From Escherichia coli (GTDB lineage: Bacteria; Pseudomonadota; Gammaproteobacteria; Enterobacterales; Enterobacteriaceae): a stretch of DNA of 64,000 bases. Positions 35,091-37,047 of this stretch are shown one piece after another. The notes under the pieces are model-generated. The model was not told the origin of the DNA and made no database searches. It worked only from the letters and a program-made list of their open reading frames with translations. How positions within the stretch are numbered: the first letter of the stretch is position 1; each line of letters opens with the position of its first letter. A program made the position numbers and the translations under genes. Location of the stretch: assembly GCF_003334405.1 (NCBI RefSeq), contig NZ_QOWM01000004.1; one strand, given 5' to 3'.

Positions 35091-35624
35091 ATGAAAACGC
35101 GTATTCATGTTGTGCAGGGTGATATTACCAAACTGGCCGTTGATGTGATTGTGAATGCGGCTAATCCGTCATTAATGGGAGGCGGCGGCGTCGATGGGGC
35201 CATTCATCGCGCAGCGGGTCCGGCCCTGCTGGATGCTTGTTTAAAAGTCAGGCAACAGCAGGGCGATTGCCCTACGGGGCATGCCGTTATTACGCTTGCA
35301 GGCGATCTTCCCGCTAAAGCCGTAGTGCACACCGTCGGGCCAGTCTGGCGTGGTGGTGAACAAAACGAAGACCAGCTTTTGCAGGATGCCTATCTCAATA
35401 GCCTACGACTGGTGGCGGCAAACAGCTATACGTCAGTGGCTTTTCCTGCAATCAGTACTGGGGTTTATGGTTACCCTCGTGCGGCAGCGGCTGAAATCGC
35501 AGTAAAAACCGTTTCAGAATTTATTACCCGTCACGCTTTACCCGAACAGGTATACTTTGTCTGTTATGATGAAGAAAACGCCCACCTCTACGAAAGACTC
35601 CTTACCCAACAAGGAGATGAATGA
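35091..35624 (+). CDS. ymdB: YmdB, macrodomain O-acetyl-ADP-ribose deacetylase / RNase III regulator
   Basis: ORF track 177 aa [43 protein letters not shown] (macro domain). Confidence 0.95.
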
Positions 35625-37047
35625 TTTGCCCCGGCTGGCGAGCGCGGTGCTGCCACTGTGTTCGCAACATCCCGGTCAGTGTGGCCTTTTTCCTCTGGAG
35701 AAAAGTCTGGATGCGTTTGCCGCCCGGTATCGTCTGGCCGAAATGGCAGAGCATACGCTCGATGTTCAGTATTACATCTGGCAGGACGATATGTCGGGTC
35801 GGTTACTGTTTTCCGCCCTGTTAGCCGCAGCAAAGCGTGGCGTTCGCGTCCGTTTGTTGCTGGACGACAACAATACGCCCGGACTTGACGACATTTTACG
35901 CTTGCTTGACAGTCATCCACGCATTGAAGTCCGGCTTTTTAATCCTTTCTCGTTTCGCTTGCTGCGTCCGCTTGGTTATATCACCGACTTTTCCCGTCTT
36001 AATCGCCGTATGCACAATAAAAGTTTCACTGTCGATGGCGTGGTGACCCTGGTGGGAGGACGAAATATTGGTGATGCCTATTTTGGAGCAGGGGAGGAGC
36101 CACTTTTTTCGGATTTAGATGTCATGGCAATAGGACCCGTGGTAGAGGACGTTGCCGATGATTTCGCCCGCTACTGGTATTGCAAATCGGTTTCACCCTT
36201 ACAGCAGGTGCTGGATGTCCCGGAGGGTGAAATGGCGGATCGCATCGAGTTACCCGCCTCCTGGCATAACGATGCCATGACGCATCGTTATTTACGCAAA
36301 ATGGAATCCAGTCCATTTATAAATCATCTGGTTGATGGAACATTGCCGCTTATCTGGGCGAAGACACGTTTATTAAGTGATGATCCGGCGAAAGGGGAGG
36401 GCAAGGCAAAACGGCATTCACTGTTACCGCAGCGCCTGTTCGATATCATGGGCTCACCCAGTGAACGCATCGATATTATCTCTTCCTATTTTGTACCGAC
36501 ACGCGCAGGTGTGGCGCAACTCTTACGGATGGTGAGAAAAGGGGTAAAGATTGCGATCCTAACCAATTCTCTTGCCGCTAACGATGTTGCTGTCGTCCAT
36601 GCCGGATACGCGCGCTGGCGCAAAAAATTGCTCCGCTATGGCGTGGAATTATATGAACTCAAGCCGACGCGTGAACAAAGTAGTACGTTACACGATCGCG
36701 GCATAACCGGTAATTCCGGAGCCAGCCTGCATGCTAAAACCTTTAGCATCGATGGTAAAACGGTGTTTATCGGCTCTTTCAATTTCGATCCGCGTTCAAC
36801 ATTGCTCAATACTGAAATGGGCTTCGTGATAGAGAGCGAAACGCTGGCACAGTTAATTGATAAACGCTTTATTCAGAGCCAGTATGATGCGGCCTGGCAG
36901 CTCCGTCTGGACAGGTGGGGACGGATCAACTGGGTTGATCGTCATGCAAAGAAAGAGATTATTCTCAAAAAAGAACCCGCCACCAGTTTCTGGAAGCGGG
37001 TTATGGTCAGACTGGCGTCGATATTGCCCGTGGAATGGTTATTGTAA
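35617..37047 (+). CDS. clsC: ClsC, phospholipase-D-family cardiolipin synthase C
   Basis: ORF track 35557..37047; two HKD motifs (HNKSF..., HAKTFSIDG); start ambiguous (ATG at 35617 overlapping ymdB stop, or TTG at ~35626 giving 473 aa). Confidence 0.9.

Follow-up and report, generated by a model that had tools for sequence, protein, structure and literature searches.

Candidate start codons of clsC within and next to ymdB in Escherichia coli

Translationally coupled operon pairs, such as trpE–trpD and trpB–trpA, are marked by the overlap of the upstream stop with the downstream start, as in ATGA or TGATG junctions. Longer predicted overlaps between genes on the same strand, on the other hand, often reflect mis-called start codons, and this counts as a general reservation against any start placed well inside an upstream gene. 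Two further kinds of systems offer precedence. In-frame alternative starts that generate N-terminal proteoforms have been catalogued in Escherichia coli by TetRP and Ribo-RET (PMC4909307; bioRxiv 10.1101/520783), and initiation independent of a Shine-Dalgarno sequence is described at AU-rich, unstructured start regions (PMC7043885).

The window considered here, the whole 64,000-nucleotide stretch of DNA that was analysed, is the csg–ymdA–ymdB–clsC–opgC region of E. coli. Its ymdB and clsC genes are 100% identical to the RefSeq E. coli genes so annotated, and the orthologous loci match the Pfam models Macro and PLDc_2. With csgC and ymdA upstream and opgC/mdoC downstream on the opposite strand, ymdB and clsC have the arrangement of an operon. 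The ymdB coding sequence (35091–35624, + strand) specifies the O-acetyl-ADP-ribose deacetylase, a macrodomain protein of 177 aa, and ends with the TGA at 35622–35624. The clsC frame is +1 relative to ymdB and its longest ORF, annotated as the PLD-type cardiolipin synthase ClsC (35557–37047, + strand), would yield 496 aa from TTG35557, 60 nt upstream of ATG35617; the upstream reach of the frame into ymdB had thus been correctly noted in the original prediction. No NCBIfam model specific to ClsC that could define its N-terminus was found, and the region has no Rfam match.

Several codons on the + strand compete as the clsC start. The original prediction weighed two of these close to the ymdB stop: ATG35617 (35617–35619), giving 476 aa and an 8-nt overlap, and TTG35626 (35626–35628), 9 nt further downstream, giving 473 aa after a 1-nt gap. 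The latter is indeed the curated K-12 product. However, this set was incomplete, since it passed over two in-frame codons within ymdB, ATG35566 (35566–35568; 493 aa, 59-nt overlap) and ATG35569 (35569–35571; 492 aa, 56-nt overlap), as well as GTG35647 (35647–35649; 466 aa), an unlikely start which would drop the conserved RL-x-x-A N-terminal motif. Consequently, the 60-nt upstream extension cannot be set aside as an artefact of the ORF track, as it contains the best-supported start, ATG35566/35569.

The suspected ambiguity is borne out by the annotations themselves, which disagree. ClsC proteins have been deposited in 473-, 476-, 492- and 493-aa versions, so the ambiguity is real and already visible in public records. 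RefSeq/PGAP places the start at ATG35566 in every E. coli record that we inspected except the curated K-12 MG1655 entry, which was deliberately revised to the 473-aa form from TTG35626 (NP_415564.2), while 72 contigs carry the 476-aa annotation. Population variation is uninformative in this regard: about 62% of 5424 E. coli genomes are identical across 35536–35655, and six variants sampled from these show no change in the candidate start codons.

Set against the described systems, the locus resembles the trp pairs in being formed by same-strand operon genes with candidate starts a few bases from the stop and a Shine-Dalgarno-like sequence inside the upstream gene. It departs from them in that its ATGA is out of the clsC frame, its stop-proximal starts are limited to one lineage and are without profiling support, and its best start lies 56–59 nt inside ymdB. 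As with mis-called out-of-frame overlaps, a pipeline predicted a long overlap (59 nt) that a curator cut to none; unlike in such cases, there are genera in which clsC has no other start and a clade in which the overlap has been resolved with the 5′ coding part retained. The two plausible in-frame starts, 57–60 nt apart and yielding 493/492-aa and 473-aa products, recall the catalogued proteoforms, but dual start use in clsC is only putative and the additional tail displays no recognizable function. Finally, ATG35566 and ATG35569 resemble the starts described in PMC7043885 in having no well-placed Shine-Dalgarno and in lying in a U/A-rich stretch followed by AAG AAA.

We consider it reasonably probable that clsC is translated mainly from ATG35566/35569, within ymdB, to give a 493- or 492-aa protein. 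Part of the case for this is comparative. In Salmonella enterica, Lelliottia, Leclercia, Enterobacter ENT03 and Intestinirhabdus, the stretch from the ATG cluster to the conserved TRL motif contains no ATG, GTG or TTG; having no other canonical start, their ClsC must begin inside ymdB. At least one ATG of the cluster is retained in all overlap-type species examined except Citrobacter werkmanii, which has an in-frame stop at −12 along with an ATG at position 0. Conservation thus extends to both the start codon and the open frame through the overlap, the +1 frame being open in 21 of 21 species across the aligned part of the overlap, although openness of this frame along ymdB is not unusual and is not significant by itself. 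Amino-acid identity in the +1 frame is elevated too, but equally so in the +2 frame, which points to conservation at the nucleotide level and not to a signal specific to the frame.

Further evidence comes from the Phytobacter/Yokenella clade (seven loci), in which a complete ymdB ends 90–230 nt upstream and the genes do not overlap. Here stops abound in the old ymdB frame, yet the homologous ATG is kept in 7/7 loci and the clsC frame has zero stops as against 1–3 in each of the other frames. The tails measure 66 nt in five loci and 63 nt in two, pointing to indels in multiples of three, and the 30 nt 5′ of the ATG are conserved at 0.81 as compared to 0.63 for the tail. Hence, the coding signature has outlived the constraint imposed by ymdB.

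Constraint is also apparent where ymdB is intact. When E. coli and Salmonella are compared, no other 36-nt window of ymdB is as conserved as the block around the ATG pair, CCCGAACAGGTATACTTTGTCTGTTATGATGAAGAA (35541–35576, + strand), which is 97% identical as against 73% gene-wide. Across the last 16 aligned ymdB codons the third-position entropy is 1.09, below the minimum (1.25) and mean (1.40) of control windows. This reduction in synonymous variation is modest and concentrated at a few sites. Y155 TAC, Y159 TAT and E162 GAA are nearly frozen; at Y155, two synonymous differences are observed versus 59 expected. The conservation of start codons, proposed earlier as a check, favors the widely kept ATG pair over the lineage-restricted TTG35626 and ATG35617. 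The earlier contention that sequence alone cannot settle the start holds for E. coli itself, which still needs experiment, but understates how strongly informative the comparative sequence is. We infer that the upstream pair is most likely the main start in E. coli as well.

Initiation profiling, the other proposed check, points in the same direction. Tetracycline profiling of K-12 lists ymdC (clsC) with a new start ATG at a shift of −57, i.e., ATG35569 (PMC4909307, Table S2, row 99), with reads of 0/30.1/16.1 as opposed to 0/0/5.7 at the annotated TTG. The study's authors marked this signal "not conclusive" because it sits within a strongly expressed upstream gene. In INRI-seq, an in vitro retapamulin approach in which an abundant synthetic RNA covered −30 to +153 around the TTG, TTG35626 gathered zero reads in five of five replicates, and ATG35617, though present on the fragment, showed no alternative peak. 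In vivo Ribo-RET, likewise retapamulin-based, also gave zero at TTG35626. Both data sets did register the ymdB start, and INRI-seq detects about 72% of annotated starts. The supplements of TRAINSPOTTER N-terminomics, Stringer et al. 2021 and a Salmonella riboproteogenomics paper hold no entries for clsC, ymdC or ymdB, and hence no ClsC N-terminal peptide.

We propose that the initiation region would be the conserved AU-rich block GGUAUACUUUGUCUGUU–AUGAUGAAGAAA, inside the ymdB coding sequence and without a well-placed Shine-Dalgarno; there is none at a usable distance from ATG35566, the closest AGG being 15 nt away. Predicted opening energies did not convincingly separate the clsC candidates, even the ymdB start, itself well detected, scoring no better than TTG35626. 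The first approximately 20 residues of ClsC would constitute a weakly constrained tail, with no targeting signal or other recognizable function, preceding the conserved (T/P)RL motif. Several observations run counter to this proposal. The conserved YmdB motif C-(Y/F)-D-(E/D) in part dictates the upstream ATGs, and T>I, K>R and P>L substitutions in the tail are tolerated within E. coli. Moreover, ClsC proteins of Pluralibacter and some Citrobacter are as short as the 473-aa form, implying that the tail is dispensable for function. As a separate observation, an AACAG/CTGTT stem may form before ATG35566; by eye, the pairing is feasible in only 13 of 21 species.

The most serious alternative is that curated K-12 is right, with a 473-aa ClsC beginning at TTG35626 by reinitiation of ribosomes that end at the ymdB UGA, helped by the Shine-Dalgarno-like AAGGAG (35611–35616, + strand). 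We regard this as rather unlikely as the principal route. The hexamer has a predicted duplex with the 16S 3′ end of −8.5 kcal/mol and lies 9 nt before TTG35626, in the 5–10 nt range expected of coupling and close to the 8–9 nt spacing cited in its favor. It could further be buried in a hairpin, CUCCUU-ACCCAAC-AAGGAG (35598–35616, + strand), in the minimum-energy fold; translation of ymdB would melt this hairpin, making the TTG35626 start dependent on it, while the upstream ATGs would be by-products of the YmdB sequence. Such ymdB-dependent opening would also account for the absent TTG signal on an isolated RNA fragment. Apart from the curated annotation, five Citrobacter species have ATG at the equivalent codon, which is the sole possible start in C. 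werkmanii, while E. fergusonii retains both AAGGAG and TTG. Against this stand the absence of a peak in vivo (Ribo-RET) or in vitro and a tetracycline-profiling signal below that of ATG35569. The codon is TTA in E. albertii, where the hexamer reads AAGGCG, and a start is missing at this position from Salmonella and at least five further genera. More generally, E. albertii and Citrobacter have AAGGCG or AAGGTG in place of AAGGAG, and TTG35626 with AAGGAG 9 nt before it is limited to Escherichia and some Citrobacter. The hairpin is intact only in Escherichia loci, its lower arm not being complementary in other genera, and hence we do not regard it as being under selection; the fold of 35580–35660 is no more stable than that of shuffled sequences (z = −0.09).

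These results bear directly on the tight stop/start coupling at GGAGATGAATGA (35613–35624) that was put forward as the key feature of the junction. In-frame starts do lie within a few bases of the stop, with ATG35617 beginning 5 nt before the TGA, and TTG35626 2 nt after it. The reported overlap of the stop with an in-frame ATG stands insofar as ATG35617 is in the clsC frame and overlaps ymdB by 8 nt, but this codon ends 2 nt short of the TGA, and the actual ATGA (35621–35624, + strand) is out of the clsC frame, opening only a 67-aa ORF (35621–35824) which is probably meaningless. Furthermore, AAGGAG adjoins ATG35617 with a spacing of 0 nt and the junction starts are not conserved in relatives, being absent from Salmonella, Lelliottia, Leclercia, Enterobacter and Intestinirhabdus, with TTA in E. 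albertii. Taken with the missing TTG35626 peaks, this speaks against tight coupling as the central feature; TTG35626 may nonetheless serve as a coupled start of secondary importance.

A mechanistic refinement of the ATG-pair explanation, rather than a separate start site, concerns the hexamer TATACT (35551–35556, + strand), 9 nt 5′ of ATG35566. It might be part of the initiation region or, speculatively, a −10 element. If the latter, a promoter inside ymdB, possibly a stationary-phase one, would generate a leaderless or nearly leaderless clsC mRNA from AUG35566, a scenario that we consider quite improbable. The hexamer is retained at synonymous sites of ymdB (Y155 TAC) and recurs as TATACT or TATAAT 8–9 nt 5′ of the ATG in the non-coding ymdB relic of the Phytobacter clade. 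Likewise in keeping with a promoter, the start at ATG35566 is strictly ATG and without a Shine-Dalgarno, and the literature reports induction of ClsC in late log and stationary phase. However, TATACT is accompanied by neither a −35 element nor an extended −10, a consensus scan found no + strand promoter here, the A of the ATG follows the hexamer at a long distance (9–10 nt), and Cedecea and Buttiauxella do not have the hexamer.

A 476-aa ClsC from ATG35617, 8 nt inside ymdB and the candidate highlighted in the original prediction, is the least supported and in our estimate barely credible: although it is an ATG reachable by terminating ribosomes, persists in E. coli, E. albertii and E. fergusonii as well as in certain Citrobacter proteins (MNE/MND/MSD), and is the annotated start in the 72 contigs mentioned above, it directly adjoins AAGGAG, has no INRI-seq peak, is dictated by the YmdB codons GAT GAA, reads ACG in C. 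sedlakii and is missing in most genera. A programmed +1 frameshift at GAA-UGA giving a YmdB–ClsC fusion was rejected, as GAA-to-AAU re-pairing would be poor and the 651–653-aa macro+PLD proteins that might be taken for such fusions come from ymdB alleles frameshifted at different, unrelated places.

Returning to the preferred reading of main initiation at ATG35566/35569, a start inside ymdB would represent the ancestral arrangement in Enterobacteriaceae. A second start would have arisen later, just past the ymdB stop, in the Escherichia/Citrobacter branch, as ATG in Citrobacter and as TTG35626 in E. coli, where reinitiation by ribosomes finishing ymdB may yield an additional, shorter form of 473 aa.

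This placement has consequences for the reported relationship of the two genes. Higher ClsC levels have been described in the literature from clones carrying ymdB, the mechanism being a stated puzzle. If the real start and initiation region lie within the final approximately 80 nt of ymdB, a clone designed on the 473-aa annotation to carry clsC alone would be deprived of the native initiation region as well as of the first 20 residues, and adding ymdB would restore both. Loss of the initiation region in such clones could explain the boost. As described, the dependence is at least as compatible with an effect in cis as with a partnership between the proteins. The stronger version, namely that the ymdB "requirement" arises in cis from a mis-set start, with the YmdB protein playing no part, strikes us as possible but on balance doubtful. 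The cis explanation is nevertheless simple and testable, and the constructs of Tan et al. 2012 and Sawasato and Bogdanov 2024 may already demonstrate or exclude it.

The clsC start problem is an ordinary annotation issue that is already largely known. However, cloning, tagging, deleting or modelling ClsC needs the correct N-terminus, over which the two main annotations differ by 20 residues, and the locus offers a case where a long predicted overlap is probably right and a curated short model probably wrong. In practical terms the question is of limited but genuine value: a ymdB deletion or ymdB::kan allele that removes the last approximately 80 nt would also remove the probable clsC start, in which case part of a ymdB phenotype could be due to clsC, and vice versa.

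The window carries the E. coli csgC-ymdA-ymdB-clsC-opgC locus, and 5424 of the 5426 complete E. coli genomes match a 2.1-kb query around the ymdB-clsC junction, with ymdB, clsC and mdoC annotated. Five of the 5427 matching places are on plasmids, and in strain AH21 (NZ_CP081711.1) an ISKpn26 element (IS5-like) is inserted within clsC. The macrodomain deacetylase gene ymdB occupies 35091-35624, its TGA stop lying at 35622-24, and the reading frame of clsC, a PLD-type cardiolipin synthase gene, is open in the +1 frame relative to ymdB from TTG35557 to a stop ending at 37047. The in-frame start candidates, named by codon and first base, are TTG35557 (496 aa, overlapping ymdB by 68 nt), ATG35566 (493 aa, 59 nt), ATG35569 (492 aa, 56 nt), ATG35617 (476 aa, 8 nt), TTG35626 (473 aa, 1 nt past the ymdB stop) and GTG35647 (466 aa, downstream of ymdB). 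The original prediction gave the coordinates, the string GGAGATGAATGA, the 60-nt upstream extension and the 473-aa TTG product correctly; it also placed an in-frame ATG at the ymdB stop, which exists as ATG35617, ending two bases short of the TGA, whereas the ATG that overlaps the stop codon itself (ATGA, 35621-24) lies in the third frame. The 67-aa ORF that opens there (35621-35824) shows no sign of meaning. Missing from its candidates was the ATG pair 35566/35569, which matters for annotation. In all E. coli records opened, RefSeq/PGAP places the clsC start at 35566, except in that of K-12 MG1655, where the curated version begins at TTG35626 (NP_415564.2). Versions of 473, 476, 492 and 493 aa are all deposited as ClsC, as an exact-sequence look-up showed; thus, the ambiguity is real and already public.

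We consider the ATG pair within ymdB, as in RefSeq, to be the probable main clsC start in E. coli. Tetracycline-inhibited ribosome profiling in K-12 reported a new start for ymdC (i.e., clsC), an ATG at -57 (PMC4909307), which corresponds to 35569 and a product beginning MKKTPTSTK. Reads in the three samples were 0, 30.1 and 16.1 at this site, as against 0, 0 and 5.7 at the annotated TTG (PMC4909307). For ymdC, as for surE, the authors could not decide whether the signal was genuine, given that the site sits within a strongly expressed upstream gene (PMC4909307), and this inconclusive marking counts against the pair. While 35569 is the profiling site, 35566 is the position aligned with the conserved homologue in other clades, and these data do not separate the two.

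The comparison covered 80 clsC loci from species-representative genomes, with Salmonella enterica and E. fergusonii added, and took as anchor the conserved (T/P)RL motif at which the alignable protein begins. Salmonella enterica, Lelliottia, Leclercia, Enterobacter ENT03 and Intestinirhabdus lack ATG, GTG and TTG codons altogether in the stretch that separates the homologue of the 35566/35569 cluster from TRL; hence, their ClsC must start 54-69 nt upstream, within ymdB. Several further genera have only GTG or TTG codons lacking a Shine-Dalgarno sequence (SD) in this interval. At least one ATG of the cluster is kept in every overlap-type species but Citrobacter werkmanii, in which the frame is interrupted by a stop at -12 and an ATG occupies the very position of E. 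coli TTG35626. The remaining Citrobacter species also have ATG at that position (TTG in C. sedlakii), E. fergusonii agrees there with E. coli, and in E. albertii the codon is TTA, with AAGGCG. This distribution marks the stop-proximal start as a feature of the Escherichia/Citrobacter branch, and in at least one species the old start has given way to it completely. In Mixta (L033, L034) ymdB and clsC are adjacent without overlap (gap of about 30 nt), clsC having its own good SD and an Erwinia-type N-terminus (MAEAL...), and other Erwiniaceae have clsC without ymdB.

In seven Phytobacter/Yokenella loci (L021, L093-L098) a complete ymdB stops 90-230 nt short of clsC, which is preceded by a decayed relic of an older ymdB 3′ end (1900-1998 in L021, about 1140-1267 in L093-L098) with the YmdB frame broken by stops, for example QIYLSCYDNKNARRIDLAFR*. 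Here the overlap looks to have been resolved with the shared segment kept for the downstream gene and, the relic frame being broken, no YmdB constraint is possible. All seven nevertheless retain the ATG homologous to 35566. From this ATG to TRL the clsC frame has no stops as compared to 1-3 in each of the other two frames, and five loci have a tail of 66 nt and the other two one of 63 nt, both length changes being multiples of three. The tails are very divergent (MTIKMPEES..., MRQKTAHLQN..., MKRHAAKNKS..., MKKNTAQHVP...), and in column conservation the 30 nt before the ATG are on a par with the enzyme core (0.81 vs 0.83; tail, 0.63). Such a pattern would be expected if the start codon is real, its initiation region conserved and the N-terminal tail weakly constrained.

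The upstream ATGs are partly forced by the YmdB sequence, since they arise from its motif C-(Y/F)-D-(E/D) (codons TAT GAT GAA). However, third-position entropy across the last 16 aligned ymdB codons is 1.09, lower than in any 16-codon control window from codons 1-147 (minimum 1.25, mean 1.40), and 35541-35576 is the most conserved 36-nt ymdB window between E. coli and Salmonella (97% vs 73% gene-wide); together these argue for constraint beyond the motif. Synonymous pairwise differences number 7 against 39 expected at Y159 TAT (the source of the AT in ATG35566), 0 against 81 at E162 GAA, 5 against 69 at T172 ACC and 2 against 59 at Y155 TAC. Both alternative frames show elevated amino-acid identity, so this is nucleotide-level conservation and no proof of selection on the ClsC tail. 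AACAG (35545-49) and CTGTT (35561-65) are perfect reverse complements flanking a TATACT hexamer and ending right before ATG35566; some relatives have AGCAG/CTGCT there, a possible compensatory pair, and pairing is possible in only 13 of 21 species by eye. Four ORFs of 651-653 aa from Logan assemblies with Macro and PLD domains (E. coli-like P0089 and P0090, Salmonella-like P0038 and P0039) are ymdB alleles frameshifted internally and then running in the +1 frame into clsC, P0089 and P0090 also being without the TAA at 35503-05. As the frameshift positions differ, we rejected programmed fusion in favor of pseudogenized lineages or assembly errors.

Against the pair, there is no SD at usable distance, the tail varies within E. 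coli (e.g., P>L at 35606), and an equally short ClsC is natural in Citrobacter and Pluralibacter. The 35606 C>T change, a common polymorphism (3 of 6 variant records fetched), is silent in ymdB (ACC>ACT) and alters a Pro otherwise well conserved across genera. That TTG35626 is instead the main start seems unlikely to us, though from sequence alone it looks a decent coupled start: AAGGAG (35611-16) lies 9 nt before it, with a predicted 16S 3′-end pairing of -8.5 kcal/mol. A 6-bp CUCCUU/AAGGAG hairpin (35598-35616) would bury AAGGAG, but the local fold is not better than shuffled sequence (z -0.09), the hairpin arms are not complementary outside Escherichia in the loci compared, and Rfam has no match in the junction region. 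In INRI-seq, synthetic RNAs covering positions -30 to +153 relative to every annotated start were translated (PMC9825163); that of clsC begins GACTCCTTACCC and holds the hairpin, AAGGAG, ATG35617 and TTG35626 without the upstream pair. This RNA was abundant (316 reads per million vs a median of 125), and the TTG drew 0 reads in 5/5 replicates, the sole alternative listed being a CTG at +69 in one replicate (PMC9825163). In-vivo Ribo-RET likewise gave 0 at the TTG, and the ymdB start was detected by both methods (PMC9825163). INRI-seq detects about 72% of annotated starts (3059/4225), so that absence at the TTG is weak evidence only, and an isolated fragment would fail to reveal a coupling-dependent start as well. 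ATG35617, the weakest candidate, directly abuts AAGGAG (spacer 0), looks poor, and is very improbable as the main start. Neither is supported by any data set, while ATG35569 is supported by one, with its caveat.

We return to the ATG pair, which would be the ancestral clsC start and probably still the main one, with SD-poor initiation at an AU-rich block followed by AAG AAA; TTG35626 would be a lineage-specific addition that may yield a shorter form through reinitiation. An overlap of operon genes with an uncertain start is a familiar kind of feature. Classic stop/start coupling is resembled only by the secondary candidates, whereas genuine long out-of-frame overlaps, a rarer class, are a better fit.

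About 20-50 codons before the TRLG motif, most non-enterobacterial beta- and gammaproteobacterial homologues (L044-L084) have an N-terminal hydrophobic signal containing a lipobox-like Cys (e.g., LLAGC-ALPPLEDR); 21 of 40 match a strict pattern, and further ones nearly match or show a single hydrophobic helix. No Enterobacterales ClsC has this signal, which bears on the question of ClsC topology: the enterobacterial enzyme may lie on the other membrane side or be anchored differently.

The start discrepancy, visible in databases and the tetracycline-profiling supplement, is already known; the comparative argument and the following cis hypothesis are of modest added value. Clones that include ymdB are reported to have higher ClsC levels, by a mechanism that the literature names as an open question. 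With the ATG pair as start, the final ~80 nt of ymdB would contain the start and its initiation region, and a clone of clsC alone designed from the 473-aa model would lack both, which adding ymdB would restore in cis. We infer that the reported YmdB dependence may have such a cis origin.
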